A DNA stretch of 64,000 nt, taken from positions 654,934-718,933 of the forward strand of contig JBFWNU010000004.1 of NCBI GenBank assembly GCA_050250895.1. Reading direction: 5' to 3'. The stretch's first letter is position 1; each line of letters begins with the position of its first letter. The position numbers were made by a program, and so were the translations under genes. This DNA comes from Vulcanimicrobiota bacterium (lineage in GTDB: Bacteria > Vulcanimicrobiota > Xenobia > Xenobiales > JADMJV01). The notes beneath the pieces are model-generated. The model was given only the letters and a program-made list of their open reading frames with translations, was not told the origin of the DNA and did no database searches. Of this stretch, positions 21,839 to 57,957 are shown one piece after another.

Positions 21839-21876
21839 TTGAGCCTCTTTTCAGCGGAGGGGGTTAGTCTGACCGG
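21839..21876 (+). promoter_or_regulatory. direct-repeat promoter (candidate regulon motif)
   Basis: TTGAG-N6-TTCAG-N10-TAGTCT-N6-GTG. Confidence 0.7.
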
Positions 21877-22434
21877 GTGATGATGCAGAACTATGGCGTT
21901 CGTGGCTTTGGCGTTGGCTTCATGAACGGCACCTACCACGGACGGAACGTCGATTCGGCCGGCACTAGCGCCTCGAAAGTCGAGACCGAGGGCGTGCTCT
22001 CGCTCAAAGAGATGCGAGTGCAGGATGTCGACGGCCACGCCAACCTCGATGTCGGTTTCGTGCCCAACCACTACGGCAAGATGACCCTTTCCATTCTCAA
22101 CCGCGGCCAGGATGCCGATCCCGAAAACTACGTCGAGGCCAACATCGAACTCACGGTAAGCGATGCCAAGCTGCAGGGCCGAGGCTCGTTGCTCAAGCCC
22201 GAGCACGGCTTTAACGCGGTCACCGTGACCGACCGGGGCGACAACGTGCTGATCCGCGCTCAGCGGGGCGACGAGACCCGAGAGTTCATCTTCAGCAACG
22301 GCTACATCTCAAACCACGCTGGCGATGTGCGAGTCGCCTTCGAGAAACTCTACGATCCCGACCACCCCATCGACCTGATCGACGCCGCCGATTTCATCGT
22401 CGTTGGCGGCATCACCGTCGACAAGAACACCTAA
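21877..22434 (+). CDS. hypothetical beta-rich protein with the shared C-terminal motif
   Basis: Ends LIDAADFIVVGGITVDKNT; no signal peptide. Confidence 0.75.
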   Translation: MMMQNYGVRGFGVGFMNGTYHGRNVDSAGTSASKVETEGVLSLKEMRVQDVDGHANLDVGFVPNHYGKMTLSILNRGQDADPENYVEANIELTVSDAKLQGRGSLLKPEHGFNAVTVTDRGDNVLIRAQRGDETREFIFSNGYISNHAGDVRVAFEKLYDPDHPIDLIDAADFIVVGGITVDKNT

Positions 22435-22455
22435 ACCTCGTCACCGCGGCGAGTC

Positions 22456-22718
22456 GGGTCCGGGCAGAGGCCCGCCAGAGTCGCCCTCAAAGCGGCGGCG
22501 AAGTCGCGCTCCGGCGGCGCGATAGACTTCCGGCGGGAAGAGCCCGAGGCGGGCCGGGTGGGTCCGGGCAGAGGCCCACGATGGTCTTCCAGCTGGAAGT
22601 GGCCTCGGCGGACAAGTCGCGCTCCGGCGGCGCAATAGACTTCCGGCGGGAAGAGCCCGAGGCGGGCCGGGCGGGTCCGGGCAGAGGCCCACGATGGTCT
22701 TCCAGCTGGAAGTGGCCG
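22456..22718. repeat. tandem array of about 2.3 x 113-bp units
   Basis: GGGTCCGGGCAGAGGCCC x3; CTTCCGGCGGGAAG at 22527 and 22640; CTTCCAGCTGGAAG at 22586 and 22699. Confidence 0.9.
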
Positions 22719-23005
22719 CGGCGGGCCGGCCCAGAATATTGCGATACCTTAACATTCTCAAATTCGGCATTGCGCCCGAAGGCATCTCGGTCTCAAATCC
22801 AGCCAGAGACGGCCCTGGAAAGCGCCACGAGCCAGAGAACCCGTTAGCAGATTGATCGAGTCATTTTTGACGGGATCTCCTGCCTCACGGCATCCTGGAA
22901 ACCCAAAAACACCGTAACCACGCCATTTCGACGCATTGATCCACGCGTGTCTCTGAAGTAAAATAGGATCATTCCTTGATTCTTTTTCAGCCCGGAGGTC
23001 TTCCC

Positions 23006-25003: not shown

Positions 25004-25012
25004 CCGCCTCCT

Positions 25013-25483
25013 TTAGCCCCAGAAGGCCGGGTCGGGTGGGCGCAGGAGGCCGGTGAACTCGTCGCCGGGAGTGCGGAGGATGGTCAGGGACATGGCCGAC
25101 GGCTCGAGTCCGCCGAAGCCCTGGAGGCATTCGAGCTGAGCCTGGGCGTGGAGCTGGGGCTCCTCCTTGCCCAGGCGGGTCAGGAGTTGGTCGAACTCGG
25201 GGACGCCGGCCTTCTCGATGGCCTGGCCCAGAGGCGAGGCTAGCGCCCCAGCGGCGACCATCAGGGTCAGTTGCTGGGCGATGCGAGCCATGGCCTGGCC
25301 GCGAAAGCCGACGCCGGTCACGCCGGCTTTGATGTCGGTGGTCGAAACCTGTAGCTGGTCGGCCAGTTCGCCCGAGAGCTGGGCCATGTCCTCGAAGCTC
25401 CGGGGCCTGGACTGGATGCGCTGGGTCTGGCTGGGTGTAAGCATGCGCCGAAGGGCGGCTTCGGCAGTTGGACGGATGTTCAT
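25013..25483 (-). CDS. hypothetical protein
   Basis: Leaderless ATG after the motif promoter; begins MNIRP. Confidence 0.7.
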   Translation of the reverse strand: MNIRPTAEAALRRMLTPSQTQRIQSRPRSFEDMAQLSGELADQLQVSTTDIKAGVTGVGFRGQAMARIAQQLTLMVAAGALASPLGQAIEKAGVPEFDQLLTRLGKEEPQLHAQAQLECLQGFGGLEPSAMSLTILRTPGDEFTGLLRPPDPAFWG

Positions 25484-25521
25484 AGCCACATCTTAGCCGG
25501 CCCACCTGAGATTCTCCTTGA
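25484..25521 (-). promoter_or_regulatory. direct-repeat promoter (candidate regulon motif)
   Basis: TCAAG-N6-CTCAG-N10-TAAGAT-N6-ATG. Confidence 0.65.
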
Positions 25522-25525
25522 CCGC

Positions 25526-26404: not shown

Positions 26405-26463
26405 AGAAGACTCCTCTCTGGGTCTAGTCTAGGGGAACGGTCAGGGCTTGAAACTGATCCGCG

Positions 26464-26898
26464 TCATCCGGCGATGTCCGAGGTGACCCACCCCTCGACG
26501 GCGGACGCTTGCTTGACCCAGTCAACGAACTGTTGCTCGTCGAGGGGCTCGTCCTCGAAAACGTGGAGGTAACGCACCTTCTCTTGCTTGGAGTTCACCG
26601 GCGGCATCGGCTCGAGCGCGGCGCCGTGGAAGAAGGCCACTTTGATGTATTTGGTGAGGCAGTGGAAGCTCAGAAACCAACCCAGGCCCTCGACGCCATA
26701 GAAGGGCGAGTTCCACTTCACGGCTTTGCGCAGCTCGGGAACGGTAGCCGTGACCAGCTCGTCGAGGCGGCGGCCGACGCCACTCTTCCAGCCAGGCATC
26801 GCTGCGATGTAGGCTTGCACCGGCTCATCGCCATAGCCCATTTCGATTTGCGGATTACCGCCGGAAAGGAGTTTGGGTTCTTTCGGTTCTTTGGCCAT
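26464..26898 (-). CDS. DUF1801 (YdhG-like) protein
   Basis: LLSGGNPQI, AMPGWK, AVKWNSPFYG, FFHGAAL. Confidence 0.85.
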   Translation of the reverse strand: MAKEPKEPKLLSGGNPQIEMGYGDEPVQAYIAAMPGWKSGVGRRLDELVTATVPELRKAVKWNSPFYGVEGLGWFLSFHCLTKYIKVAFFHGAALEPMPPVNSKQEKVRYLHVFEDEPLDEQQFVDWVKQASAVEGWVTSDIAG

Positions 26899-29774: not shown

Positions 29775-29812
29775 TTCAGTTGAATTTGAGGCCGATCTCA
29801 TAACCTGGCGAG
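29775..29812 (+). promoter_or_regulatory. direct-repeat promoter (candidate regulon motif)
   Basis: TTCAG-N6-TTGAG-N10-TAACCT-N6-GTG. Confidence 0.72.
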
Positions 29813-30655
29813 GTGCAGGGTTCGTCCGTCAAAGCCGCCCATCAGCTCGCCCAGCGAGGCTGGCGCTTCACCGTGCCCGGTTCTCGGGGCCCGTTTGACG
29901 ATCCCATCGAGTATTCACCCGATCGCGTCTGCCAGAGTATCGAGGGCAACCGCTATTTGATCATGCGCGGACCCGACGGAACGGCTCTCAGAGCCTACTC
30001 TCCGCTCTATGTCGAGGCCGCCGAGCAACTCTATGGAGGCAACTGCTCGGACCGCCTCAACCTCGAGCAGCTGACCCAAGGCAATCGCCAGCTCGGTCTG
30101 CGAGTAGCCGCCCAGCTCCTCGGCAACCCGGGATTGACGGTCGAGATGGCCCTGGCCGAGCTAGCCTTCAGCGAGTCACTGACCAGCCAGCAGTCTGACC
30201 AGGAAGAAGCAGCTGGCGCGGCCTTCGCGATGGTCACAAAGCCGGTCGAAGGAACCACTCAGACCGAGCGCCAGCAGCTATTCACAGAACTTCACCAGGG
30301 AGTCAGCCAGAACTTTCGCCCCGAGGTCTACCAGCGCTCTTTAGACCACACTCAAAGGCTGTACGAGTTGCTCACCGCCAAACCGCCGGCTCGACTAGAC
30401 GAGGTGACTTCGGTCATGGCCAACCTGGTGACTCGCCTCGATCCCAAGGACTGGAAGCTTGCCGTCGAGGCCACCGCCCGGGCTGTTGAGGGACCCAACT
30501 GGCCCGCCAGCTACCTGCGGCTCAGAGAATTGGCCCAGAGACGCCCGGTGGACGAGACGGTGGCCGGCTTGAAAGAGCTCAACCGCGGGCCGCTCGAGGT
30601 TCGTGAAGAGGTCGATGCGGTCTGGATCGGCTCGGTTCGTCTCGAACTCGACTAG
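29813..30655 (+). CDS. hypothetical helical protein with the shared C-terminal motif
   Basis: Ends VREEVDAVWIGSVRLELD; no signal peptide. Confidence 0.75.
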   Translation: MQGSSVKAAHQLAQRGWRFTVPGSRGPFDDPIEYSPDRVCQSIEGNRYLIMRGPDGTALRAYSPLYVEAAEQLYGGNCSDRLNLEQLTQGNRQLGLRVAAQLLGNPGLTVEMALAELAFSESLTSQQSDQEEAAGAAFAMVTKPVEGTTQTERQQLFTELHQGVSQNFRPEVYQRSLDHTQRLYELLTAKPPARLDEVTSVMANLVTRLDPKDWKLAVEATARAVEGPNWPASYLRLRELAQRRPVDETVAGLKELNRGPLEVREEVDAVWIGSVRLELD

Positions 30656-31704: not shown

Positions 31705-33867
31705 TTGCGTACATATTTTCTCGTTCTGCTGGCGCTATTGCTGTTGCCGGCAGCCGCCGACACCCTCACCGTCGGCTCTTATCAGGTCGAACTCACCACC
31801 GAGCCCTCGCCGCCGGTAGTCGGCGACAACCAGCTCAGGCTAAAGGTCGTCCCACCGCCCCAATCGGTCAAAGTGACCTATGACATGGTCGGCATGTCCA
31901 TGCAGATGGACCCACCCCAGCTCCAGCCGGGCGGGCCGGGCGTGTGGCAGGGCAACTTGCTGCTCTCGATGCCCGGCCTGTGGAAGCTGACCGTCGAGAT
32001 CGAGGGCCAGACCGGCGAAGTCATGCTCAAGACCGGCGAGGGCCGGGCCCCACCCAGGCAGGCCGAAGACGGGGTCTATCAAGTGAAGGTCGACGCCCCC
32101 GAGACGGTCGGCGACACGCCGACCACGATCGAGGTGAAGACCAACGGCAAGCCGGTGGGAGGGGCCACCGTCTACGTGGGAGCGGACATGCCGGGAATGG
32201 CCATGGGTCTGCGGCCGGTCAAGGCCAACGAGGTCGAACCCGGACGCTACCAGGCGGCCGTGCCGCTCTCGATGGAGGGGCTGTGGAAGCTGACCGTCGA
32301 GGTAGACGGCCCCGAGGGACAGTCGAGCCAGCAGGTCTCGGTAGTGGTCAAGCGGGGGGGTGGCTTTCCCTGGCAATGGGTGGTGCTGCTGGCGACCGTG
32401 GTCGCCCTGATCGCCTGGCGCCCGCCCCTGTGGCAGGGGGTGCTGGTGGGATCGCTGGTACTGGTTGCCGTGCTGACCGGTGAGTATCTCGAGCGCTATC
32501 GCCCGGCCGACAAGAGCATGGGCATGCAGATGGACATGGCCGCCCCCGACATGGGGATGAACATCTCTGAAATGCAGGCTCCTGTGCCGGTGGTCATCGA
32601 GGAAGTCGAGCGCGACACGGTGGACATGACCGTCAACTATACGGGCACGGTCAGGCCGTATCTCGAAGAGACCATCTATCCTCGGGTGGAAGGGTGGTTG
32701 TTGGAGCTGCCGTTCTATCCGGGCGACCAGGTCAAGAAGGGCCAGGTGGTCGGTCGCCTCGACGATCGCGAACTCTCGCTCAAGGCACAGAAAGCCGAAG
32801 CCAGTGCGGCCGTCAGCCAGGCCCAGGCGCGGGCGGCAACCGCCGGGGCGGCCGGGTCCCGGTCCGCCGTGGAGGTGGCCCGGGCCGAACTCGAGGCTTC
32901 ACAAAAGCGAGCCGAACGAGCGCAAGCCGAAATTCACCGCACCGAAGTCGACCTCGATTATTGGCAGGGGGTGTTGCGACGCGAGAAAGAGCTGCTCGAT
33001 GCCGAGGCCGTGTCGCGTGAGGAATACGAAGAGAAAGAATCGCGCTTTGCCACCGCCAAGGTAATGCACCACCACGCCCGGGTGGACCTCGAGCGGGCTC
33101 AGGCCGAGGTCAAAGCGCAGCAGGCGGGGCTTGAGCAAGCCCGGAGTCAGGCCGAAGCGGCCAGTCTGGGGGCCGCCGCCGCCGCCGCCCAGGAGCGCCA
33201 GGCTCGGCTCGAGGCGGCCGAGCGCGAGACCGTAGCCGACTACACCGTGTTGCGAGCTGGCATTGACGGAGTCGTGACCGAACGCATCACCGATCCCGGC
33301 GGGCTGGTCCGACCGGGGACGGGTATCTTGAAGGTGGCCGACCTCGACCAGGTGCGCCTGCAATTTAGCGTCGCCGAAGAAGACCTGCCCTATCTCCGCG
33401 AGGGCACGCGGGTGACGGTGACCTCGCAGGCTCTGCGCGATGAGATAGAGACCGAGGTGACCTCGATGTTTCGAGCGGTCGACGCTCGCTCCCGCACGGG
33501 GCTGGTCGAAGCCCTGGTCAAAAACCCTGGTGGCAGGCTACTGCCAGGCTCTTACGTGGTGGGCGTCTTTGCGCTACGGCGCGAGCGGCATGTGCCGACG
33601 ATCCCGCGAGGTGCGTTGGCCAGCTACTACGGTGAGCCGTCGGTGTGGGTGGCGGTGGAACGGGCCGGGCAACTGGTGTCCCAGCGGCGGCCGATTCGGG
33701 TGGGGGCCGAGAGTGAAGAACAACTGGAGGTGCTCGACGGGCTCGAACCGGGCGACGAGGTGATCGTGGCCGGGCACCAGGGACTGGTCGAAGGTCAGCC
33801 TCTGGTCCGGGCCGAGCGAGGTGAGGGAATCTATCGCAATCTGCTGTTGCCGGAGGCTCCCCGATGA
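31705..33867 (+). CDS. efflux RND periplasmic adaptor with two N-terminal YtkA/FixH-like domains
   Basis: Two DMxGMxM...LSMxGLWKLTVE repeats; MFP motifs GDQVKKGQ, LRAGIDGVV, EVLDGLEPGDEVI. Confidence 0.88.
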   Translation: MRTYFLVLLALLLLPAAADTLTVGSYQVELTTEPSPPVVGDNQLRLKVVPPPQSVKVTYDMVGMSMQMDPPQLQPGGPGVWQGNLLLSMPGLWKLTVEIEGQTGEVMLKTGEGRAPPRQAEDGVYQVKVDAPETVGDTPTTIEVKTNGKPVGGATVYVGADMPGMAMGLRPVKANEVEPGRYQAAVPLSMEGLWKLTVEVDGPEGQSSQQVSVVVKRGGGFPWQWVVLLATVVALIAWRPPLWQGVLVGSLVLVAVLTGEYLERYRPADKSMGMQMDMAAPDMGMNISEMQAPVPVVIEEVERDTVDMTVNYTGTVRPYLEETIYPRVEGWLLELPFYPGDQVKKGQVVGRLDDRELSLKAQKAEASAAVSQAQARAATAGAAGSRSAVEVARAELEASQKRAERAQAEIHRTEVDLDYWQGVLRREKELLDAEAVSREEYEEKESRFATAKVMHHHARVDLERAQAEVKAQQAGLEQARSQAEAASLGAAAAAAQERQARLEAAERETVADYTVLRAGIDGVVTERITDPGGLVRPGTGILKVADLDQVRLQFSVAEEDLPYLREGTRVTVTSQALRDEIETEVTSMFRAVDARSRTGLVEALVKNPGGRLLPGSYVVGVFALRRERHVPTIPRGALASYYGEPSVWVAVERAGQLVSQRRPIRVGAESEEQLEVLDGLEPGDEVIVAGHQGLVEGQPLVRAERGEGIYRNLLLPEAPR

Positions 33868-36800
33868 AGATCATCCGCTGGTCGGTGGACAACCCGTTCG
33901 CCGTCATCGCCCTCTATCTCGGCCTGTTGGTGGCCGCCTGGATGGCCGCCACGCAGTTGGTGCCCACCCGCATGATGCCGTATGTCGAAAGCCCCATGAT
34001 CGGCATCATCACGCAAGCTCCGGGAATGTCGGCCGAAGAAGTCGAGACCTATATCTCAAAGCCCCTGGAAGAGCGCATGGTCGACATCAGCGGCGTCCGC
34101 TATATCCGCTCCTCTTCCACCCAGGGGATGTCCATCGTGTCGCTGGAGTTTCACTATCGCTACGACATGAAGAAGGCCCTGGCCGATACCCAGAACCAGG
34201 TTACGGCGGCCCAGAGCGACCTGCCCTATGACCCGGCCAACTTGCGTCCGCCCTGGATCTTGCCGATTGATCCCCTCAACCTGCCCGTGCTCAAGCTGGC
34301 CTTGCGGGCTCCCGAGTGGGACCCGGTGGCTCTGCGCGAGTTCGCCGACAACACCCTGGTGACGCGCCTGAAGAACGCCACCAACGTCGAGTCGGTGTAC
34401 GCCTTCGGAGGCTACAAACGCCAGGCTCAGGTGGTGGTGGACCGCGACAAACTGGCCGCCTACGGCCTCTCCATCCTGGCTCTCAAGAAGGCAATCGACG
34501 GGGCCAACCTGGACCGGTCGGCGGGCACCCTGACCTGGATGGAGGGTGAGTCGATCGTGCGTTTGACCGGTCGCTCGCGTGGAGGCGAGGGGCTGGCGGA
34601 GACGGTCGTGGGCGACTTCGGTGGTCGGCCGGTACTGCTGCGCGATGTCGCTCGCGTCGAGGACACCTTCGCCGAGCGGCGCAGCCTCTATCGCTTCAAC
34701 GGCCGCGAGGCCATCGAGGTCAACATCATCCAGCGCCCCGACGCTTCCTCGCCCGAGACCATCGCGGCCGTGCGCCACGAGCTTGACCGAATCCAGAAAG
34801 AGTATCCCAACCTCGAGTTTGAAGAGGCCTACGACAACGCCCACTTCGTCGAGATCATCAAGCACAACATGTTCGAAGAGTTGGCCGTGGGCGTGGCTCT
34901 GACCGGATTGGTCATTTTTCTCTTCCTGGGCGATTTGCGAGGAACGCTGATCGCCCTGGTCACCATCCCCACCAGTCTGGCCGTGGCCATTCTGTTGTTC
35001 GCGCCCTTTGGCTTGTCGCTCAATTCCTCGACTCTGATCGGCTTGTTGCTGGCCATCGGGCGACTGGTTGACGACTCGATCATCGACCTGCACTCGGTGG
35101 CCCGCCATCTCGAGATGGGCAAGACCCCTCGCCAGGCCGCCATCGACGGCTGCAGCGAGGTCCGTCGCTCGGTGATCGCGGCTACCGTCATGATTTGTCT
35201 GGCGATGTTGCCCCTCACCTTCTCGGGCGGGCTGACCCAGGATATGTTCGAGGGCATCGTCTGGCCTTTCTTGTTCTGCCTGGGCGCTTCGCTGGTGGTG
35301 GCTCTGACCCTGACGCCCTTGCTGGCCGCTCACCTCTATCGGGGCGATTCCACCTGGAAAGAGCGGATGGGGCCCTGGTTTGATTTCTTGGGCCGGCTCG
35401 AGAGCGGCTATGGGCGGGTCCTGGGCTGGGCCCTGGGCCATCGCGGGTTGGTGATGGCGGTGGCGGGCGTAGCCGTCTATCTGGCTCTGGCTCTGTTCCC
35501 AGCCATCGGGTATGAAATGATGCCACTGGCCGATGTGGGCCAGGCTTACGCCATGATGGAGGCTCGTCCGGGCACCTCGTTCGCTGAAACGGCCTCGATG
35601 GCCGAGCGTCTCGAGAAGCTCTTGCTCGAACAACCCGAAATCGAGAAGGTCTCGCTGCGAGTGGGCTTCGAGCCGGGCGGAACCTACTTCACCGGCTACG
35701 CCATGGGCGGGGTCAACACGGTCAACATCATGTTGACCTTTAAGGACAAGGAGAAACGCGAGCGCACCATCTGGCAAGTCGTCGATGCTGTCCACGCCGA
35801 GGCCAGGCGCACCATTCCGGGTATTCGCCGGCTGTCGATCAAAGAGATGGGCTCGGACGTCATGGCCTCGGCCATGGCACCGGTTGAACTGCTCATCTAT
35901 GGGCCCGACCTGGAGCGTCTATCGTGGCTTTCTGAGCAGACCAAAGCCATCATGGAGCGAGATTATCCCGATATCGTACAGCCGGCTACCGCCTGGGGCC
36001 TCGACCAGCCCGAGCTGCGTCTAGAAGTCGATCAGAGGCGGGCAGCCGAGCTGGGACTGACTCCCGCCCAGGTGGCTGAACAGGCCTATTACGCCTTAAA
36101 CGGCGGCCTGACGCGAGAGTTCTTCAATCCCCCTCAGGTGCGCCACTCGACCGTGCTGATTCGCTATCGCCAGGACCAGCGGCGCGGCCTCAAAGACCTC
36201 GAAAACGTGATCATTACCGCTGCTGATGGGCGGCGGGTGCCGCTCAAGAGCCTGGCCTCGATCAGCGAAGAGCGGGCACCGGCGGTCATCCAGCGAGACG
36301 GACTCCGCCGGGTCAACTCGGTGCTGGGCTACTACCGGATGGATGGCCCGGGTTCGATGCAACTGACCATGGACGTGATGATGGACAGCCTGATGCAACT
36401 TCCCTACCCGCCTGGCTACGGCATGGAACAGCGCGGCGACATGACCCAGATGATGGATTCGTTCTATCGACTGCTGTGGGGCATGGGACTGGCCCTGTTT
36501 TTCATCTATCTCTCACTGGTGATCCAGTTTCACTCGCTGACGCAACCGCTGGTGATGATGGCCGCCATTCCACTGGAGATGATCGGCGTTTTCGCCGGAC
36601 TTTTCCTGGCTGGCCAGACCTTCTCGACGGTGTCGGTGCTGGGCATCATCGTGCTCAACGGCATGGACGTGACGGCTTCGATTCTCTTGGTGGACCACAT
36701 CCTGCACCTGCGCGCGGAGGGCATCACGCGGGAAGAAGCGGTCCGTCGGGCCGGTCCGGTGCGACTGTTGCCCATTCTCATGACCGTGTTGATCACGATG

Positions 36801-42228: not shown

Positions 42229-42423
42229 ACATCCCTGGTCGCCGGCCTCCCTTGACTCTTCCCTGCCCCGGTCTCCCAGCCACTCCTGGACTACTTTGCA
42301 GAGCCAGCCCGGCCACCGGTGCATCTAACCCCCATCTACCCAGCCCGACCTAAAATCAGGTCATGGAAGGTTACCCCTGCCTCGGGATCTCGAACAAAGA
42401 AAGGCCCAAGAGCGGTTAAGCAA

Positions 42424-43395
42424 ATGAAGCTAAACTCTATCAGTAAGCGAGAAGCTGTTCAACGTCTCAAGGCCTGGCAGGCGCGTCTGCTGGATACAGA
42501 GCAGACTGCCGCGGCGTCGGCCGTCTACCAGGCCCGCCACCGCCTGGAGGAAGCTGAGGGCGAAACGCTCTTAGAGACCTATTCGCGGGCACGGAACAGG
42601 ACCAACGACTGCCAGAAGGTCCACGAAGCCGTCATGAAAGAGAGACGGGACACCGGTCCGGCGCTGCTGGTTGGCGCGGGCTCGCTGGCACTGGGCATCT
42701 CTTCCTATCTAAGTACGGCCAGCCTGAACTTTGCCGCGATATGCACGCTGACATCGGCCTCCCTGGTGCCGATCTGGGGAGCCTGCCGGGGCGTCTTCGA
42801 GGTGCTTGCCGGCAAAGACTATACCGGGGTCCTGGCGGCTGGGTGCACGGCCGGCCTGGCCACCATGGCCGTAGCCGGCGTGTCACCTTCAGGTTGGCAA
42901 CTGAGCCTGGCGGCTGCCGCCATCACCACCGGTGGGCTTTTCGCCACGGCCTTCGGGGCGCAAAAGATGGCCGACCACTATGGCCAGATCAAAATGGCCG
43001 TAGAAGAGAACCTCGAGGTCTTCAACCGGCCGCCCCAGGCTGGTCCGAGCCTGAGCGCCAGGTGTAGCCGTCAAATGGTGTTGGAGACACTCGACAAGCT
43101 GACCGATCGGGCCCTCGAAGCCTCTCAATCCGACCAGGCCAGGCAACTCCAGCAGGAGCGGAGGGTCCTTGACGGGCTCGAGGGGAGCAACTTTCTGGAA
43201 ATGTTCGAGGACAGCCAGGCCCGGCAGCCAGGAGCGCGGGTCGTCCTCCAAAAGCATGCGAGAGTCGTTCTCCAGGTCGTTCGCGACCGCGACCAGATCG
43301 AGACCATGGCCAGAGGGTCTGCGGTCATGGGCCAATTGGTGGTCCGGGACGAATGGGTGGACGTAGGCGGCCAAGGCGTGCCGGTGCGCGACTAA
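42424..43395 (+). CDS. multi-TM hypothetical protein with the shared C-terminal motif
   Basis: Central Gly/Ala-rich hydrophobic helices; ends LVVRDEWVDVGGQGVPVRD; start uncertain. Confidence 0.7.
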   Translation: MKLNSISKREAVQRLKAWQARLLDTEQTAAASAVYQARHRLEEAEGETLLETYSRARNRTNDCQKVHEAVMKERRDTGPALLVGAGSLALGISSYLSTASLNFAAICTLTSASLVPIWGACRGVFEVLAGKDYTGVLAAGCTAGLATMAVAGVSPSGWQLSLAAAAITTGGLFATAFGAQKMADHYGQIKMAVEENLEVFNRPPQAGPSLSARCSRQMVLETLDKLTDRALEASQSDQARQLQQERRVLDGLEGSNFLEMFEDSQARQPGARVVLQKHARVVLQVVRDRDQIETMARGSAVMGQLVVRDEWVDVGGQGVPVRD

Positions 43396-46955: not shown

Positions 46956-48488
46956 CTATAGGAAGGCAGGCTTCTTGTTCATGAACGTAGCCAGACCGTT
47001 CCAGCCAAACGACGGCACGCCGAAGCCCTGAGGATTCTGGCCCGGCTCGGCCAGGGGATGAAAATACTCGTAGAAATCGGCCCGGTCGAGCGCCTCGAAA
47101 GTGGAGCTGCGAATCTTCTCGGACATGGCCCGGGCCAGCACATTATCGGGATTGCTCTTGAGGTGCTGCTCAAGACCGCAGCGGGTGAAAAAGTTGACGA
47201 TGACCCAGATATTGCCGCGCCAGTAGTGGTCGTTGGGATTCTCGAGCATCTGCGTGGGCACGCTGGGATCGTCGAGCGAGGTCGTGGGCACGCTATACCC
47301 GTCGGGCGGATTGAACTCGCCGGGATTGAGCAAATGGTTGGCAATCAGGCTGGTCCCATGGGGCTCGCCCTCGAGCAGCATGGGATAGAACATGGCGGCG
47401 CTCTTGACCGGCGACTTGCGCTCGCCGATGAGGTCGCAATACTTGTCGCCATCCCACATCTTCTCGAAGATGGCAGCTTTGACTTCGTCGGCCCGCTGCT
47501 GATAGTGGTCGGCCCGGTCGGGCTGGTCGGCGGCTTGATACAACCGCGCCAGACACTCGAGATTCTTGGCGTAGAGAGCGTTGAAATCGACCGGTTTGAC
47601 GGCGAAGTCGCCGCTCTCGAAGATCTTGTCGAGGTCCCAGTCCAGGGCCTTATACTTGCAAAACAGACCCATCTTACGCACATCGATCTGGCTGCGCTCG
47701 ATGGGAGCCTCGGGCCGCCCCAGGCCGATGGTCTCGTCCCAACGCTGGCTATTGTCCCAGCCGCTCTCCCAGGGATGGATGATGCGGACCAGGCCGTCCT
47801 CGTCGGCCCGCCGGTCGTGAAGATAATCATAGTAGGCCGAAAGCTTCGGCAGCATTTCTCCGAGAAAGGCCTGGTCGTCGGTAGCAGCCTGCAACTCGAG
47901 AGCGGCCATGGCCAGGATCGGAGGCTGGGTGATATCAGAGTGCACCGGGCTCGACCAGTAGCCCTGACAGAATTCAGCGCGCTCGCTCTCGGGCACCAAC
48001 CGGCGACCGTCGGGCGAGTCGAGAAAACGCTGGTAATGCGGCTGGGCCCAGGTCGGCACCCGGCTGCCGTCGCCGTGGAAGTAGTTCATGTGGGGCACGA
48101 AGCCCAAGTCTTTCGAGGCGGGGTCGCGATTCTGGTTGGCGAAAACGGCGCGCAGCTCGGACTGAGCCACCTCGGGCTCGGTCCAGGCTAGATTCATGAC
48201 GTGAGCGGCCGAGTCCCAGAGCCATTGCTTGCCACCATAGTCGAGGCGCGAATCTTGAGCGCCGTCGCAGCGACTGGGAGTGGTGAAGGTATGCTCGGCG
48301 CCGGCGGGGTCGACGACCTTGACCCGATTACCGCTGAGAATCTGATAGGCTTTGAGGGTCACGGCCATGTCGCGTTCGCGCTGGGCCGCTCCCAGCTCCA
48401 GCTGGTCTTTGGGTCCAGAACTGGTGGGACGGGTGGCTGACCGAACCACGGGACGTGACGGCAGGCCGGGGAGTGAAGTGATGAGCAT
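46956..48488 (-). CDS. GH63/MGH1-like (alpha/alpha)6 glycoside hydrolase
   Basis: QWLWDSA, ITQPP, HPWESGWDNS, YWRGNIW, FYEYF, FGW. Confidence 0.85.
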   Translation of the reverse strand: MLITSLPGLPSRPVVRSATRPTSSGPKDQLELGAAQRERDMAVTLKAYQILSGNRVKVVDPAGAEHTFTTPSRCDGAQDSRLDYGGKQWLWDSAAHVMNLAWTEPEVAQSELRAVFANQNRDPASKDLGFVPHMNYFHGDGSRVPTWAQPHYQRFLDSPDGRRLVPESERAEFCQGYWSSPVHSDITQPPILAMAALELQAATDDQAFLGEMLPKLSAYYDYLHDRRADEDGLVRIIHPWESGWDNSQRWDETIGLGRPEAPIERSQIDVRKMGLFCKYKALDWDLDKIFESGDFAVKPVDFNALYAKNLECLARLYQAADQPDRADHYQQRADEVKAAIFEKMWDGDKYCDLIGERKSPVKSAAMFYPMLLEGEPHGTSLIANHLLNPGEFNPPDGYSVPTTSLDDPSVPTQMLENPNDHYWRGNIWVIVNFFTRCGLEQHLKSNPDNVLARAMSEKIRSSTFEALDRADFYEYFHPLAEPGQNPQGFGVPSFGWNGLATFMNKKPAFL

Positions 48489-48505: not shown

Positions 48506-48537
48506 AAAGTAAGAGAAAGCCCTGAAAAATCGTTGAA
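48506..48537 (-). promoter_or_regulatory. direct-repeat promoter (candidate regulon motif, leadered)
   Basis: TTCAA-N6-TTCAG-N10-TACTTT, then SD AGGAGG. Confidence 0.68.
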
Positions 48538-51764: not shown

Positions 51765-52385
51765 TTACCCTCCGTGCTTGAAATTGGCCAGTCCCGTGCT
51801 GGCCGCCAGCCAGGCGCCAACAGCAGCCACCACCTGGCTATCTCTAGCCAGGCAAAAGCGGGTAGAGAGGGCGTTGATCGATTCGCCGGGGTTTACCAGA
51901 TAGACCTGACTGCTTCCAGTGCTGCTGCCTCGAAACAGCTGCAGACTGGCCCGCGAGAAGTCTTGCTCGTGCACTCCCCAGGGCGATTTGCGATATTGGG
52001 TCAGTCGGCCCGGAGCCAACTCCCAACGCAACTCGGTGACTAGCTCGCGGACGGCCAGGCCCCATAGCAGCAAGCTAATCAGCAAGAAGAGAAAAGTGAC
52101 CAGGGCCGGGCTGACGAAAAAGCCGGCTCCGGCAGCGGTGCCCCCGATCATGAAAAGCACCGCCGACATGAAGGCGTGCGAACGGGGCTGGGTCAGAACC
52201 AAGCGACCATCCCGCCGCTCGAACGTATAATGACGCGTCAACTCCTCGGGCGGCTCTAACTCGGCCACCTCCTGGCCCCCCTCGACTACCGGCGCGGCCG
52301 TATGCAAGTCTGCCGAGCACTGATAACAATTCTGGTCAGATTGACGATTCTGACTGCCGCAACCCGGGCAACGCAAATATCTCAT
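51765..52385 (-). CDS. zinc-ribbon membrane protein
   Basis: CPGCG...CYQC followed by two TM helices. Confidence 0.75.
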   Translation of the reverse strand: MRYLRCPGCGSQNRQSDQNCYQCSADLHTAAPVVEGGQEVAELEPPEELTRHYTFERRDGRLVLTQPRSHAFMSAVLFMIGGTAAGAGFFVSPALVTFLFLLISLLLWGLAVRELVTELRWELAPGRLTQYRKSPWGVHEQDFSRASLQLFRGSSTGSSQVYLVNPGESINALSTRFCLARDSQVVAAVGAWLAASTGLANFKHGG

Positions 52386-52444
52386 ATAGGAAAATTCCAG
52401 CCGGCAAGTCAAAACTCCTGGGCAACGATGGCGCGCTCGGTGGT

Positions 52445-54110
52445 CCCGGCCCGGCCGCCTTCGGCGGGGCGGGGCGAACCCAGACTTCCAGCTGGAGGAC
52501 CGGCCCACGGGGCAGCGGCCTGGCCAGCTCCGCACGGAACACGAGCGGTCGCGAGCGCCCGGTAGCCGGGGCGAGGGGAGCACGGCCGCCTTCGGCGGGG
52601 CGGGGCGAACCCAGACTTCCAGCTGGAAGACCGGCCCGCGGGGCGGCGACCTGGTCACTTCCGCACGGAAGACGAGCGGTCGCGAGCGCCCGGCAGCCCG
52701 GGCCGGAGACGACCGCCTCGGGGGGGGCGGGGCGAACCCAGACTTCCAGTTGGAAGACCGGCCCGCGGGGCGGCGACCCGGCCAGCTCCGCACGGAACAC
52801 GAGCGGTCGCGAGCGCCCGGCAGCCGGGGCGAGGGGAGCACGACCGCCTTCGACGGGGCGATTCAACCCCCCAGACTTCCAGCTGGAAGACCGGCCCACG
52901 GGGCAGCGGCCTGGCCAACTCATCTGGCCACTTCCGCACGGAAGACGAGCGGTCGCGAGCCGAATCGCCCGGCCGCCCGGGCCGGAGCACGACCGCCTTC
53001 GACGGGGCGATTCAACCCCAGACTTCCAGCTGGAAGACCGGCCCACGGGGCAGCGACCTGGCCAACTCACGTGCCACTTCCGCACGGAAGACGAGCGGTC
53101 GCGAGCCGAATCGCCCGGCCGCCCTGGCCGGAGCACGACCGCCTCGGCGGGGTGGGGCGAACCCAGACCTCCAGCTGGAAGACCGGCCCACAGGGCAGCG
53201 ACCTGGCCAGCTCATCTGGCCACTTCCGCACGGAAGACGAGCGGTCGCGAGCGCCCGGCAGCCCGGGCCGGAGCACGTCCGCCTCGGCGGGGTGGGGCAA
53301 CCCAGACTTCCAGCTGGAAGACCGGCCCCCGGCGCGGCGATCTGGCCAGCTCACCTGGCCACTTCCGCACGGAAGACGAGCGGTCGCGAGCGCCCCGCAG
53401 CCCGGGCCGGAGCACGACCGCCTCGGCGGGGTGGGGCGAACCCAGACTTCCAGTTGGAAGACCGGCCCGCGGGGCGGCGATCTGGCCACTTCCGCACGGA
53501 AGACGAGCGGTCGCGAGCGCCCGGCAGCCCGGGCCGAGGGGAGCACGACCGCCTCGGCGGGGTGGGGCGAACCCAGACTTCCAGTTGGAAGACCGGCCCG
53601 CGGGGCGGCGACCCGGCCAGCTCCGCACGGAACACGAGCGGTCGCGAGCGCCCGGCAGCCGGGGCGAGGGGAGCACGACCGCCTTCGACGGGGCGATTCA
53701 ACCCCCCAGACTTCCAGCTGGAAGACCGGCCCACGGGGCAGCGGCCTGGCCAACTCATCTGGCCACTTCCGCACGGAAGACGAGCGGTCGCGAGCGCCCG
53801 GTAGCCGGGGCGAGGGGAGCACGGCCGCCTTCGGCGGGGTGGGGCAACCCAGACTTCCAGCTGGAAGACCGGCCCCCGGCGCGGCGATCTGGCCAGCTCA
53901 CCTGGCCACTTCCGCACGGAAGACGAGCGGTCGCGAGCGCCCCGCAGCCCGGGCCGGAGCACGACCGCCTCGGCGGGGCGGGGCGAACCCAGACTTCCAG
54001 CTGGAAGACCGGCCCGCGGGGCAGCGTGGCCACCTCACCTGGCCACTTCCGCACGGACGACGAGCGGTCGCGAGCGCCCGGCCGCCTGGGCCGGAGCACG
54101 TCCGCCTCGG
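52445..54110. repeat. tandem mosaic array of 12 units of about 127-146 bp (REP/BIME-like)
   Basis: CCCAGACTTCCAG(C/T)TGGAAGACCGGCCC near 52481, 52611, 52738, 52871, 53017, 53162, 53301, 53441, 53572, 53705, 53848 and 53988, alternating with CTTCCGCACGGAAGACGAGCGGTCGCGAGC. Confidence 0.95.
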
Positions 54111-54205
54111 CGCCTCGGCGCCCTTTGCGGTTAGCCCATCGAGCTCAAACCGACCGGCTACGACAAGCGATCCAGAGGCGCTCACCCCCAGCGCACCGGA
54201 TTGCC

Positions 54206-55171
54206 TCAGGTGAACTTCGAGAGGTAGTTGTAGCCGAAGTGACTGCCCGTGTCGTCGATGACGGTCATGTTGGGGTTGTCGGTGAAGATATCGTGGGTGA
54301 GAAACTCTTTGCCCAGCAGCTTGCGCGGCTCGAGGCCAAGTTGGGGGGCGGTTCGCGACAGCGACTTCCAGACCAGTTCGGCGCAGCCGAAGCCGTCGTC
54401 GCTGCCCTCGCCGCGCAGTTTGTACATCAGGTCGAAGCCTTTGCCCACATGAGTGCGGGCCTCGGCCACGGCGGCCTGAGCTTGCTCCTGGTCGCGATAG
54501 GCCGGGCGTAAAATCTTGACGTGCTCGTTCTCGCCCATCACTATGGCGGCGGGGCGCTCGATCACGCCACATTCAATCAGGCTGTCCACGGCCTGACCGT
54601 CACCGGCATAGAGGCCGACATGGACCCAGGAAGGGTTCGAGCCGGTCAGGCCGCCCATCACCTCGAGGTCGAGCCAGGTGTCCGAGTTGGTCACGATGAC
54701 ATCACCCGGTTCCATCTTGTCGAGCATCTGCTGCACACGCTCGGCGCTGGGGCGGGGGTGCGAAGTGTAACTGGGATCCCAGAGCTTCTTGGGCAGCGAG
54801 CCGAGGGTGAAGCCTTTCGTCTCGTCCTGCATTCGGGGCGAGAAGACATCGAGGCCGAGGCCGTCCATGGCCGCGCCCAGGCCGGTGCCGACCACCCCTC
54901 CGACCATTCCCCCCACCATCCGGCCAACCGGGAAAACGCCCTCGAAACGGCGGCTCTTGAACTCGACATAGACCCCGGTGGCAAAGCCCGCCACCGCGCC
55001 CGCCACTTTGGCTGCCGGCCCAAAACTGTCGCACAGTTCGGCTCCGAGCTTGGCCGTCACGAAGGGTACGGCCAGACGTGTGACCAGCGAACCGGTAGCT
55101 GCACCAAGACTGCCCATCGCCTTGCGATTGACGTGGCGGGCCGGAGAAGAGGCCTGATTCTGGATTCTCAT
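54206..55171 (-). CDS. permuted papain-like NlpC/P60 (YiiX/C92) protein with N-terminal glycine-zipper helices
   Basis: PGDVI, WVHVGLY, ILRP, VGKGFD, GCAELVW. Confidence 0.82.
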   Translation of the reverse strand: MRIQNQASSPARHVNRKAMGSLGAATGSLVTRLAVPFVTAKLGAELCDSFGPAAKVAGAVAGFATGVYVEFKSRRFEGVFPVGRMVGGMVGGVVGTGLGAAMDGLGLDVFSPRMQDETKGFTLGSLPKKLWDPSYTSHPRPSAERVQQMLDKMEPGDVIVTNSDTWLDLEVMGGLTGSNPSWVHVGLYAGDGQAVDSLIECGVIERPAAIVMGENEHVKILRPAYRDQEQAQAAVAEARTHVGKGFDLMYKLRGEGSDDGFGCAELVWKSLSRTAPQLGLEPRKLLGKEFLTHDIFTDNPNMTVIDDTGSHFGYNYLSKFT

Positions 55172-55210
55172 GAGATCCAGTTTAGGGGTCGCGACTGAAA
55201 AGTATCTGAA
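55172..55210 (-). promoter_or_regulatory. direct-repeat promoter (best match to the regulon motif)
   Basis: TTCAG-N6-TTCAG-N10-TAAACT-N7-ATG. Confidence 0.75.
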
Positions 55211-56327
55211 CGGCCGAGGCCAGCCGTTGATAGTCGTCGAGAGTGTTGTAGGCAAAGGCTGAAAGGCGCAAGATGCCGGTGGGCCCGAAGGGACTGGCGT
55301 AGCTATCGAGGGCGAACTCGTCGTAGAGATGGCGATAGAGATCTCGATAGGGTCGGGGCAGGGGGATGGCTGCCAGGGTTCCCAGCATGGAATCGGGAGC
55401 CGGGGCCGGCTGCCCGAAGACCTCGAGGAGGAGGTCGCGGCCGGCCAGCACCAGTTGATGGCAGTCACGGCGCAGGTTGGTCCAGCCGAACTCGCTCTCG
55501 AGCAGGGTCAGCGAACGAGGGGCGGCCAGCCAGGCGGTCGGGTCGAAGGTTCCGGGCCAATCAAAGTTCTCGAGAAAGGGAGAGCGTTGGCGAGGGGAGT
55601 TGAAACCGTGGCTGATCACCGGGGGGACCAGCCCGGGTTGACCTTCGGGATGGACCCAGAGCACCGCCGCTCCTTTGGGGGCACAACACCATTTGTGGAG
55701 GTTGCCGGTGTAATAGCTCACTCCGGCTTGACCGAGGGCCTCCAGGTCGAGTTCGAGCATGCCCGGCGCATGGGCCCCATCGACCAGCACGGCCACCTTG
55801 CGCGCGGCCAGTTCGCGAGCCAGCGCCTCGATGGGAAAGACCAGACCGGTGGGGCTGGTGACGTGGTCGAGCATGACCAGGCGGGTGCGCGGGGTGAGCG
55901 AGCCGAGCACCGCCTCGATGACCTGCTCGGGCCCCTTGCAGGGGAAGGGAATGCGAGCCACCGAGAGTTTGAGACGGTAGCGCTGGGCCAGGTAGCAGGC
56001 CACATTGTTGCAGGCGTTATAGCCGTGATTGGTGATGACCAATTCATCGTCGGGCCGCCAATCTAGCGAACGCAAGACGGCATTGACCCCGCTGGTGGCG
56101 TTGGTGACGAAGGCTAGATTGTGGGGTTGCGAGCCGAGAAAGTGGGCCACCTCGAGGCGAGCCGACTCGAGCAGCTCGGGCAACTGGCGCAGCATGAAAT
56201 CGGCCGGACTGGCTTCAAGCCGGCCACGCAGTTCGGCCTGATAGTCGAGAACGGCGGTGGGGCAGGCTCCGAAAGAACCATGATTGAGAAACGTCAGAGC
56301 GGGGTCGAGCGACCACAGTGAACCCAT
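55182..56327 (-). CDS. class V PLP aminotransferase (isopenicillin N epimerase/EgtE-like)
   Basis: FLNHGSFGACP, NATSG, DHVTSPTG, VDGAHAPG, GNLHKW. Confidence 0.9.
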   Translation of the reverse strand: MGSLWSLDPALTFLNHGSFGACPTAVLDYQAELRGRLEASPADFMLRQLPELLESARLEVAHFLGSQPHNLAFVTNATSGVNAVLRSLDWRPDDELVITNHGYNACNNVACYLAQRYRLKLSVARIPFPCKGPEQVIEAVLGSLTPRTRLVMLDHVTSPTGLVFPIEALARELAARKVAVLVDGAHAPGMLELDLEALGQAGVSYYTGNLHKWCCAPKGAAVLWVHPEGQPGLVPPVISHGFNSPRQRSPFLENFDWPGTFDPTAWLAAPRSLTLLESEFGWTNLRRDCHQLVLAGRDLLLEVFGQPAPAPDSMLGTLAAIPLPRPYRDLYRHLYDEFALDSYASPFGPTGILRLSAFAYNTLDDYQRLASAVQILFSRDP

Positions 56328-56418
56328 CGTGGTCCATTCTGGCGACCATCGACTTCCCCTCTCCAGCAAAACAGAAGGAGGATGAATTCACTCTGAGGAA
56401 ACCAGTGGATGGAGGTTG

Positions 56419-56796
56419 ATGATGAGAGAAACCGTGGGCTCGCTCAAAGCGTATTTCATTCTGGTCGGCGTTCTAGGCGGACTGGGTAGCCTGGTCAGGC
56501 TCGGGACTGCCGTCGAGGTCGGCAACCTCAACGGCGGCGGCATCCTCGTGTTTCTGATGGCAATGGCCGTCATCCAGGGGGTGCTCGCCCTGGGCTATCT
56601 CTACATGGGCTTCCAGCTCCCCACTCTGCTCAGCCAGAAACCCCACCTTCCCATGCGTATCGCAGGAGCGGCCATCATCCTGTCTGCCCTGACCTTCAAC
56701 ATCATCGGCGTGTTGCTCAACGTCTACATCTGGTATCAGCTCAAACGGCTCGCCACCGAGTCCGACGGCCAGGTCGAGCAGCAGGTGTTGCGATAG
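56419..56796 (+). CDS. small multi-TM membrane protein
   Basis: SD GGAGG; ETVGSLKAYFIL; about four hydrophobic segments. Confidence 0.75.
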   Translation: MMRETVGSLKAYFILVGVLGGLGSLVRLGTAVEVGNLNGGGILVFLMAMAVIQGVLALGYLYMGFQLPTLLSQKPHLPMRIAGAAIILSALTFNIIGVLLNVYIWYQLKRLATESDGQVEQQVLR

Positions 56797-57947
56797 AGCT
56801 TGAGGACCTTCTAGACGAGGCCCGGGGGGCGGGCCGAATCGACTCGTCGGGCAGTTTCACCGTCGACCTGCAGGCGGCGATTTCCAAGCTCCGCTCATAC
56901 CAGGTCGAGAACCCTTATCACTACGTCAACCGCCTGATTCGCACCGCCTATCTCGTCGGCAGCCCCTGCGTGGATGTGGCCAGCAAAGCCGCCCGCACCC
57001 GCGTTCACTTTCCTCTGGCCGCCATCGACCCGGCGCAGCTAGAACAACTGCTCGAGCAAATGTTCCAGGCTCAGAATCCCGCCGCCAAAGCTCTGGCCGA
57101 CGCCACCAATCTAGCCCTCGGGCTTGAGGATGAACGGGTGGAACTGAGCCTCGACAATGGCGAACGAGCTCGCTTGATGGTGGTCGACCACGGTCAGGTC
57201 GAGGTTTACGAGATCCGTCCCGAAGGTATGGGCACCACCTTCCAGTTGCGACGCTCGACGGGCTCCAAGCTAGCGACTCTGGCCACCAACTCGCCTGAGT
57301 ATATAGCCGTGGTGCGCCGCTTTCGCTATAGTCCGCTCGCGATCAGCATCAATGGTCAGAGTCCGCCTCGGGAAGTGGGTTGGGGGGCACCCCCCAAGAA
57401 AAACGGGCCCAAGTTTTTCGTGCGAGCCGGCTTCTTCAAGTCCCACCGCCTTTGCGTTGAGCATCATGCGGTCGAGGTGCGATACTACAGCGAAGACGAG
57501 GCCGGCAACGGGCTCGGACTACTGCCTTCTACGGCCACGGGGCTGGCCCGGCTCGGTCCTCAGTCGAGCGGCGAGCTCGATCGCTGTCAACTTGCCATTG
57601 GTCTGGCCATCGACCCGGCCCAACCTTCTACCATCGCCTGGGTCTATTGTGGCGAGACCCTTCAGACCTTTCCGGTGGAGCTGCCGGCTCCAGGACTGCA
57701 ACTATTGGTGTCGGCCAGCGATCTCAATCTGGATCTGACCGGAGAGAAGCTGGTGCAAGACGAGACCTTTCGAGACCGATGGGACTTCGCCAAGACCAGG
57801 GCTCGCGAACTGGTCGAGGCTCTGCGACGAGCCTATCCCGATACACGCGAGCGCAACCTGGCCAGGCAAGCGTTTCTTGACGAACAAGTGCGTTGGCGCC
57901 CTTTCCTCGAGGCCGACTTCCAGAGTTTTTTAAGCGACTCCGGCTAG
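56793..57947 (+). CDS. degenerate GHKL/HSP90-like N-domain family protein (non-canonical start)
   Basis: The open frame extends 59 codons upstream of GTG 56970 (LEDLL...G.IDSSGSFTVD...KL..YQVENPYHY); RRFRYSPLAISING. Confidence 0.65.
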   Translation: MELEDLLDEARGAGRIDSSGSFTVDLQAAISKLRSYQVENPYHYVNRLIRTAYLVGSPCVDVASKAARTRVHFPLAAIDPAQLEQLLEQMFQAQNPAAKALADATNLALGLEDERVELSLDNGERARLMVVDHGQVEVYEIRPEGMGTTFQLRRSTGSKLATLATNSPEYIAVVRRFRYSPLAISINGQSPPREVGWGAPPKKNGPKFFVRAGFFKSHRLCVEHHAVEVRYYSEDEAGNGLGLLPSTATGLARLGPQSSGELDRCQLAIGLAIDPAQPSTIAWVYCGETLQTFPVELPAPGLQLLVSASDLNLDLTGEKLVQDETFRDRWDFAKTRARELVEALRRAYPDTRERNLARQAFLDEQVRWRPFLEADFQSFLSDSG

Positions 57948-57957
57948 TCTCTTCCCT
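57919..57957 (+). promoter_or_regulatory. direct-repeat promoter (candidate regulon motif)
   Basis: TCCAG-N6-TTAAG-N10-TAGTCT-N7-ATG. Confidence 0.7.

Follow-up and report, generated by a model that had tools for sequence, protein, structure and literature searches.

A stretch of 64,000 nucleotides (nt) from the genome of a Vulcanimicrobiota (Eremiobacterota) bacterium, referred to below as the window, contains several copies of a promoter-like element in which two TTCAG-like boxes, directly repeated with a period of 11 bp, stand at a rigid distance before a TAnnnT hexamer. The window covers C4:654934-718933 (contig and positions, as for all coordinates outside the window) of the genome G000, which comprises 9.50 Mb in 17 contigs and has a GC content of 63%. 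Genome-wide the element, which we call class B, has the consensus tTTCAG-N5-tTTCAG-N9-cTAGnCT. Class B is probably a second major promoter class of this Eremiobacterota bacterium. Its motif is not phylum-wide but restricted to those families of a single class that have large genomes. Judged by geometry, an activator of the OmpR/PhoB type would be the best-fitting mechanism, and we give a somewhat better than even chance, roughly 55%, to the reading that class B is a large co-regulated programme of about 350 promoters under such an activator.

Geometry and number of the tandem-box sites

Six sites of the form 5mer-N6-5mer-N10-TAnnnT had been described in the window by a reading made from the sequence only, and rereading of the letters confirmed the sequence and spacing of all six. 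They are covered by the regular expression T[TC][CGA]A[GA]-Nx-[TC]T[CGA]AG-Ny-TANNNT, which was run on both strands of the whole genome with both spacers varied. The combination N6/N10 gives 123 matches and N5/N10 gives 23, and the other 62 combinations give 0-9 each. Along the distance to the -10 element, the 123 matches at N10 compare with 8 at N9 and 4 at N11. Chance is excluded because the counts concentrate at one spacing throughout the genome. Among the 123 matches, positions that the expression leaves free are also conserved: a T ahead of each box, a T-rich stretch before the second box, and around the -10 element the preceding C, a G at the third position and a C at the fifth. The boxes number exactly two, and the conservation profile of these matches gives no hint of a third. 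The flanks (-30 to -2) and the spacer positions have background information content. A dispersed repeat or mobile element was considered and rejected, since nothing beyond the boxes is conserved.

An iterated weight matrix gives a bimodal distribution of scores, with 356 sites in G000 scoring at least 18. The first-round matrix found 304 sites at or above this score at the canonical spacing, compared with 4-20 when the spacers were shifted by 2-3 bases; shifting the inter-box distance by one base in either direction gave 60-109 sites, in part by re-detecting true ones. What had been proposed as a small regulon of six to eight genes is instead a set of about 350 promoters, spread over all larger contigs of the genome. 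The pairing of the boxes is also evident without the regular expression. The distance between TTCAG and TAnnnT peaks at gap 10 (181 sites) and gap 21 (175 sites) against about 48, the number expected from background. Among the 181 sites with gap 10, the distal box is seen as T128 T144 C116 A145 G123, and it is present in essentially all such sites in excess of background. No TTGACA-like element is found in the class-B sites and the N10 distance is rigid, in agreement with the earlier proposal that the boxes take the place of the -35 element. The direct repeat, with its period of 11 bp and its fixed distance to a TAnnnT -10 element, is probably a genuine promoter element.

The distance from the class-B -10 element to the coding region was measured on 7518 genes of G000 predicted with a purpose-made, crude codon-usage caller. 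For the 356 sites, the first in-frame start of a predicted gene lies 6 nt past the -10 element in 125 cases, 7 nt in 27 and 8 nt in 11; it lies at 13-60 nt in 101 and at 61-200 nt in 20, and 26 sites have no downstream gene. At 152 of the 356 sites the start is thus exactly 6 or 7 nt away, without a Shine-Dalgarno sequence. Sites with an mRNA leader carry a Shine-Dalgarno-like GGAG, GAGG or AGGA before the start in 80 of 121 cases. The sequence-only reading had put the start codon 6-7 nt past the -10 element in five of the six cases of the window. This holds, the gene at 48488 being the exception with 17 nt and a Shine-Dalgarno sequence in between. Genome-wide, most class-B genes are predicted to be leaderless; counted by site, this applies to nearly half. 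The class-B rule would also define the true start codons of leaderless genes.

Promoters consisting of a -10 element only are common in this genome. Over all genes, TAnnnT is found 6 nt before the start in 749, compared with about 230-340 at other in-phase offsets, which is an excess of about 450 genes. The boxes could thus be the operator of a repressor laid over -10-only leaderless promoters, and a protein bound across -38 to -23 would indeed block polymerase. Operators, however, need no single-base-pair register with the -10 element, and the single-base precision of N10 argues for direct protein contact with polymerase rather than a mere operator. We consider a repressor improbable.

A scan of every 5-mer at every distance from every TAnnnT in G000 also recovered a canonical promoter class, with TGACA at gap 17 (109 sites vs a mean of 26) and TTGAC at gap 18 (196 vs 67). 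This TTGACA-N17 class carries a TGc-TAtaaT -10 element. The class-B -10 element is cTAGnCT in leaderless and leadered members alike, with G at the third position in 104/170 and 58/121 and C at the fifth in 111/170 and 73/121.

The sites of the window and their genes are listed in Table 1. Five of the six sites score 25.4-29.6, and the site before 25483 is marginal. Weaker matches had also been claimed before 42363 and 49451, but no matrix score of at least 8 is found upstream of either, and the long open reading frame (ORF) 42319-43395 is read in a different frame from the ATG at 42363. The addB, Uma2 and DUF1801 genes were correctly described as lacking the motif; no further site in the window scores 13 or more. 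The promoter before 55171 sits within the 3' end of the upstream aminotransferase gene. With 5-6 sites, compared with 2.4 expected per 64 kb (P(>=5)=0.10), the window is no special cluster and has about the average density of the genome.

Table 1. Class-B sites of the window and the genes that follow them (positions in the window).
Feature	Position	Strand	Sequence or product	Start codon	Matrix score
Class-B promoter	21839..21870	+	TTGAG (21839-21843), N6, TTCAG (21850-21854), N10, TAGTCT (21865-21870)	GTG, 6 nt on	27.7
Leaderless target	21877..22434	+	185 amino acids, without Pfam or NCBIfam family		
Marginal class-B promoter	25490..25521	-	TCAAG, N6, CTCAG, N10, TAAGAT	ATG, 6 nt on	15.0 (ambiguous zone)
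Leaderless target	25013..25483	-	156 amino acids, without Pfam or NCBIfam family; begins MNIR, leader-like		
Class-B promoter	29775..29806	+	TTCAG, N6, TTGAG, N10, TAACCT	GTG, 6 nt on	25.4
Leaderless target	29813..30655	+	280 amino acids, without Pfam or NCBIfam family		
Class-B promoter	48506..48537	-	TTCAA, N6, TTCAG, N10, TACTTT; 17-nt mRNA leader with GAGGAGG	ATG at 48488	26.7
Target	46956..48488	-	510 amino acids, MGH1-like/trehalase-type glycoside hydrolase (Pfam); N-terminal leader MLITSLPGLPSRPVVRSATRP...		
Class-B promoter	55179..55210	-	TTCAG, N6, TTCAG, N10, TAAACT	ATG, 7 nt on	27.4
Leaderless target	54206..55171	-	321 amino acids, C92 (YiiX-type) permuted papain-like amidase; begins MRIQNQ		
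Class-B promoter	57919..57950	+	TCCAG, N6, TTAAG, N10, TAGTCT	ATG, 7 nt on	29.6 (best of the window)
Leaderless target	57958..61749	+	1263 amino acids, InhA-like MAM / choice-of-anchor J domain; begins MQVGNL		

Target genes, the N-terminal leader and the C-terminal tag

Pfam shows no relationship among the six targets in the window. Three of them lack any family, and the remaining three comprise a glycoside hydrolase, a C92 amidase and a MAM-domain protein. For a genome-wide view, the first gene behind each of 100 sites, drawn at random from the 324 sites with a gene within 200 nt, was searched with Pfam at 1e-5. The control consisted of all 93 predicted genes of six random 20-kb regions minus five class-B targets, which leaves 88. 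No Pfam family was found for 68/100 targets, compared with 28/88 controls (odds ratio 4.6, p=1e-6). The families that do occur in the sample include four PlsC-like acyltransferases, three PilZ proteins, two YidD fusions, two M48 peptidases and two PQQ propellers, as well as an InhA-like MAM protein, CarD, an outer-membrane efflux protein, a P450, a haem peroxidase, glycoside hydrolases and a tricorn-like protease. A 32-bp rule that picks out about 350 putatively co-regulated genes offers an annotation handle for hundreds of hypothetical proteins.

Ribosomal, polymerase and other core-machinery genes are all missing from the 100 sampled targets, which bears out the earlier statement that the gene set is distinct from housekeeping genes. 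A pyruvate-kinase-like gene is among the targets, as might be expected if class B were simply the general or housekeeping promoter of the phylum, with no meaning as a regulon. We give this explanation next to no weight. Class B is not the basal promoter, because the TTGACA-N17-TAtaaT class coexists with it and the sampled targets lack core-machinery genes, and the motif is at background in 19/19 genomes of a family of the same order (f2, below), as well as in those other classes of the phylum which the search covered.

Alignment of the products revealed that many class-B targets begin with a common N-terminal leader. It starts with M-[KRQLNHIM]-[IV], continues with a stretch rich in Pro, Arg and Ala, and then often contains D-x-V-x-L-S. 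The pattern M-x-[IV]...P...R-A...D-x-V-x-L-S, roughly 40-50 residues long, is found on hundreds of unrelated proteins of G000, and a hydrophobic or lipobox-like segment frequently comes after it. Ordinary enzyme families carry it as well, for example pyruvate-kinase-like and DeoC-like proteins (both assigned by eye and not scanned). In the window it is borne by the genes 46956-48488, 54206-55171, 57958-61749 and 25013-25483. A profile hidden Markov model of the leader, which in cross-validation recovered 6/69 and 10/69 held-out members vs 22/7198 and 26/7198 other genes, was too weak and was replaced by simple start patterns.

An M-x-[IV] start is present in 138 of 320 class-B targets (87/187 leaderless, 51/133 leadered), compared with 460/7198 other genes, for which the most upstream start was used since the caller leaves start codons outside class B uncertain. 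Among candidates with TAnnnT 6 or 7 nt before the start, M-x-[IV] occurs in 80/150 with boxes and 88/1039 without. As it is tied to the boxes, the leader is neither a general trait of leaderless genes nor a feature of the start at the DNA level. Codons 2-35 of the leader have a coding signature, with GC contents of.67,.54 and.72 at the three codon positions and log-odds of +3.4 in frame and -12 and -11 out of frame.

A C-terminal tag is the second shared feature. A regular expression built from two examples in the window (43340-43395 and 61700-61749) matches 18 proteins, about 14 of which have a visibly common ending, ...(D/E)(D/G)W(L/V)x(V/I)G(D/G)xx(V/I)x(V/I)xx; the MAM-domain product of 57958..61749 ends in EDWLQVGDQVVPVRE. 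The tag is present in 10/320 class-B targets vs 8/7198 other genes (odds ratio 29). The overlap with the tag set that had been noticed from the sequence is thus real, with 10 of the 18 tagged proteins lying behind a promoter that serves 320 of 7518 genes, but as a shared protein feature the tag is rare beside the N-terminal leader, which is the stronger one. None of the NCBIfam models matched the leader or the tag in 16 proteins tried, and Pfam gave no match to them in those scanned; the MAM proteins carry a choice-of-anchor J domain by NCBIfam. The class-B rule in this way ties together two unexplained protein tags. Because the targets share the leader and the tag, the motif would mark one co-regulated programme of probably exported or sorted proteins. 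The idea of a predation or host-contact arsenal, put forward from the sequence, finds no direct support in these results.

Distribution in the phylum and candidate regulators

Genomes of the phylum (121) were searched with TTVAG-N6-TTVAG-N10-TANNNT, using the reversed pattern as a control. G000 itself contains 94 matches (control 0), and a genome of the same genus, G088, contains 100 (control 2). The other 14 genomes of the family, f1, have 7-43 matches each (control 0-4). In family f3 of the same order, five genomes of 5-9 Mb have 37-97 (control 0-1), and in family f4 of the same class three genomes have 5-13 (control 0). The 19 genomes of f2, which belongs to the same order and has small genomes of 1.9-4.7 Mb, have 0-5 matches, overall not above the control (0-2). 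The largest family of the other classes, f15, has 0-2 matches in 45 genomes (control 0-1). Outside the class, f13 has 4-13 matches and others up to 7, but there the controls are raised too (2-4). The large genomes of the class thus carry a regulatory layer that is missing in small-genome relatives.

Two genera of f2, g8 and g9, are not clean negatives, since 4 of 20 fetched TTCAG-N6-TTCAG sites are followed by [CG]AnnnT at N10; they may hold a handful of class-B promoters at most. In a motif-poor relative, at least seven 11-bp units TTCAGGGCGGA follow one another in tandem at G084:C72:14475-14556, and this array inflates the TTCAG-N6-TTCAG count of that genome. A strict 18-base pattern searched in 185,579 species genomes gave 77 scattered matches, at most two per genome, mostly in Gammaproteobacteria and Acidobacteriota, with seven in Eremiobacterota/Vulcanimicrobiota; as G000 itself has eight, this pattern is too strict to map the clade.

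The target genes share the distribution of the motif, as shown by the PlsC-like acyltransferases, which are rich in f3 and absent from f2. G000 has 11 matches, G088 and four of the five f3 genomes have 5-10, the fifth f3 genome has one, and the 19 genomes of f2 have none. Of 30 such loci, 21 have an upstream matrix score of at least 19, and these 21 come from seven genomes in three families. In f3 the -10 element of these loci is often [C/G]AnnnT.

The glycoside hydrolase of the window has a single ortholog among the 44 genomes of the class, with 65% identity, in G066 (G066:C128:13159-17583, gene 1468-2934, minus strand). This ortholog lacks the 33-residue leader and has no matrix score of at least 12 upstream. 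Although it is a single case, it suggests that leader and promoter may be gained or lost as one module. Such a cassette could have spread by duplication of paralogs without any common regulator. Besides the G066 case, the over-representation of paralogs fits this explanation (11 PlsC-like genes in G000, and the recurrence of PilZ, YidD-fusion, M48 and PQQ propeller proteins). On the other hand, the boxes and the -10 element alone are conserved while flanks and spacers are at background, which means that selection keeps the boxes and that descent of the DNA from a common source does not account for them. No family common to the six window targets, or to most of the sample, could be detected. 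A module that comes and goes is moreover compatible with a common regulator and is no replacement for one. Duplication alone is therefore a very improbable explanation. A reading that goes further than the OmpR/PhoB programme, and which we advance only tentatively as it is the less probable of the two, is that a clade-specific master regulator controls the roughly 350 promoters, and that leader and promoter form the module of a new export or sorting programme that came with genome expansion. If this is true, the tandem-box promoter would be the transcriptional handle of that programme.

In the proposed OmpR/PhoB mechanism, the two boxes would be read one DNA turn apart. If the -10 element is placed at -12 to -7, they would lie at about -38 to -34 and -27 to -23, where a -35 element and its spacer would otherwise sit. 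Most likely, one OmpR/PhoB winged-helix activator would bind the two boxes as a head-to-tail dimer, and the dimer would recruit RNA polymerase with a sigma factor that reads TAnnnT, as PhoB and PhoP do at pho boxes. Transcription would start 6-7 nt past the -10 element. At nearly half of the sites this would be the A or G of the start codon and give a leaderless mRNA, and at most remaining sites a short mRNA leader with a Shine-Dalgarno sequence would be made. The products would be an accessory, lineage-specific set, very often with the N-terminal leader and in some cases with the C-terminal tag, and they are probably exported or sorted.

Candidate regulators were compared by phylogenetic profiling across the class (44 genomes). 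G000 has 19 strong Trans_reg_C genes, G088 has 11, G054 has 25 and G040 has 9, whereas the motif-negative genomes G070 and G012 have four and three. Three OmpR-family response regulators, RR-A (C1:347573, minus strand), RR-B (C8:295631, minus strand) and RR-C (C1:107297, with three paralogs), were picked by reciprocal best hits in a five-genome profile, with no hits in two motif-negative genomes, and were then scanned over the 44 genomes with their 85-residue DNA-binding ends. They make up a short list of regulators for testing in vitro without a cultured organism. RR-A was also considered as a PmrA-like protein, which was rejected because its nearest solved relatives are PrrA, CovR and PhoB, with PmrA far down the list. 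A further OmpR-family response regulator, at C4:483043-483273 (minus strand), is conserved to an extraordinary degree, with 100% identity in the same-genus genome, 99% in f3 and 94% in g8 across about 230 residues; over the same distances a group-2-like sigma factor is just 54-66% identical.

Several results weigh against an OmpR/PhoB-type activator. None of the three candidates tracks the motif in all 44 genomes. For RR-A, which fits best, G074 offers no clear ortholog and the assignment in G068 is ambiguous, and in f2 its DNA-binding end exceeds the paralog level by just a few points of identity. Genus g2 carries the motif, but RR-B is missing in 8/8 of its genomes. RR-C is missing in five of 15 f1 genomes, being present in 10/15 of f1, 5/5 of f3, 2/3 of f4 and 0/19 of f2; in G054 it was not among the 13 of 25 regulators that were fetched, but it was found by the class-wide scan. 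Assembly gaps may explain some of these misses, and the three regulators are leads rather than an identification. There is also no sign of autoregulation, as none of the response-regulator genes is preceded by a class-B site with a score of at least 18; the highest values are 16.9 and 13.1, at roughly 1 kb upstream. For one response regulator, about 350 promoters is a large number, and the cTAGnCT -10 element differs from the canonical TAtaaT in the way that a separate sigma factor would produce.

The last point leads to the explanation that an alternative sigma factor dedicated to class B reads it directly, either by itself or together with a partner protein, with cTAGnCT as its own -10 element and the boxes as an upstream element, in the manner of a sporulation or stress sigma regulon. 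The very rigid spacing over several hundred promoters and the occurrence of cTAGnCT, as opposed to TGc-TAtaaT, in leaderless and leadered members are both in line with it. G000 contains 26 sigma-70-family genes, six of them with a region 3 signal and 20 of extracytoplasmic function (ECF) size; the primary factor is C1:2625870-2627456. The five non-primary factors with a region 3 signal were profiled, and none of these five tracks the motif. The group-2-like factor C3:760186-761169 has orthologs in every motif-rich family, but g8 and g9, which are motif-poor, have it too. C1:1293934 is universal, C7:240233 has no ortholog in the f3 genome tested and C1:2276970 none in the f4 genome tested. C1:575824 is found in 14/44 genomes and is missing in the same-genus genome with 100 motif matches. 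Only one ECF-size sigma gene has class-B sites upstream. Region 4 of a sigma factor reads one -35 element and not two identical boxes 11 bp apart, and the distal box, 20-21 bp from the -10 element, is farther away than usual spacers allow. A dedicated sigma factor is thus unlikely, though it is to be taken more seriously than a repressor, and an activator of the OmpR/PhoB type is preferred. Two sigma-70-family genes, C1:575824-576579 (minus strand) and C1:576891-577100 (plus strand), diverge from one intergenic region, and the first is FliA-like in region 4.2.

Known promoter systems and further observations

Among known systems, the pho-box promoters of PhoB and PhoP resemble class B in having direct repeats with an 11-bp period over the -35 element or in its place. 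The E. coli pho box is, like class B, 10 bp from the -10 element. In cryo-electron microscopy complexes, tandem dimers of Mycobacterium tuberculosis PhoP on direct-repeat PHO boxes displace the contact of sigma-A region 4 with the -35 element (PMC11825685). In structure 1GXP, the effector domains of PhoB sit on the pho box as a head-to-tail tandem (PMC3348028), and Streptomyces PhoP uses 11-nt direct-repeat units in over 100 genes (PMC2275107). Class B differs from the pho box in its box, tTTCAG, in having exactly two boxes and in the number of about 350 promoters, nearly half of its sites being leaderless. Unlike the pho regulon, its targets are mostly proteins of unknown function with a shared leader and not proteins of phosphate acquisition.

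The leaderless TAnnnT promoters of high-GC Terrabacteria (Actinobacteria and Deinococcus-Thermus) are similar in that the -10 element lies 6-7 nt before ATG or GTG and no Shine-Dalgarno sequence is present. They usually have no defined upstream element, whereas the class-B subset has strict tandem boxes and differs in protein content from the other leaderless genes of G000. In CtrA-type sites, TTAA-N7-TTAA, the half-sites are one helical turn apart and are bound by a winged-helix regulator of the OmpR family that controls a large programme. Their half-site sequence differs from that of class B, and a rigid N10 distance to the -10 element is, to our knowledge, not a feature of CtrA sites. The sites of Streptomyces antibiotic regulatory proteins (SARPs) also consist of 11-bp-period direct repeats over the -35 element, in high-GC genomes rich in biosynthetic clusters, and G000 encodes about ten large proteins with weak, SARP-like Trans_reg_C matches. 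The repeats bound by SARPs are heptamers, end some 8 bp from the -10 element and control single clusters; in class B the distance is 10 bp and the sites are dispersed across the larger contigs.

Class B is new in the sequence of its boxes, in keeping strictly to two of them, in the number of promoters, in being limited to one clade and in its coupling to a protein leader and tag. The promoter logic of Eremiobacterota is essentially unknown. The literature searches that were made on the phylum turned up nothing on its promoter motifs, and a promoter-prediction preprint names the phylum among those most often left with incomplete predictions.

A further tandem class was seen in G000, which we call class C. 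The pattern TAACA-N6-yAAC-N21-TAnnnT has 19 matches, compared with 0-2 in the rest of the spacing matrix, and TAACA occurs 87 times at gap 31 from TAnnnT vs 16. Written out, class C is gTTAACA-N5-g(g/t)(c/t)AACa, ending 20 nt before TAnnnT, with examples on the plus strand of C6 at 348974 and the minus strand of C2 at 20952. Several class-C genes are leaderless and start with M-x-[IV]. The boxes resemble the TTAACA-type repeats of Bacillus PhoP; a search of G000 for the PstS family (PF12849), made with a Pho regulon in mind, found nothing at 1e-10. Two types of boxes ahead of the same type of -10 element would fit two activators working with one polymerase.

Two other features of the window are of note. 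The region 52000-54000 is far off the window average, with 72% GC and an AT skew of 0.31, and contains long overlapping ORFs (51765-52841 on the minus strand and 52750-54213 on the plus strand) without a Pfam family. At 33864-38297, a single ORF of 1477 amino acids encodes a complete AcrB-type RND pump (residues 3-1025) fused to an outer-membrane efflux protein (OEP) domain, best matched at residues 1298-1476, which is an unusual fusion.

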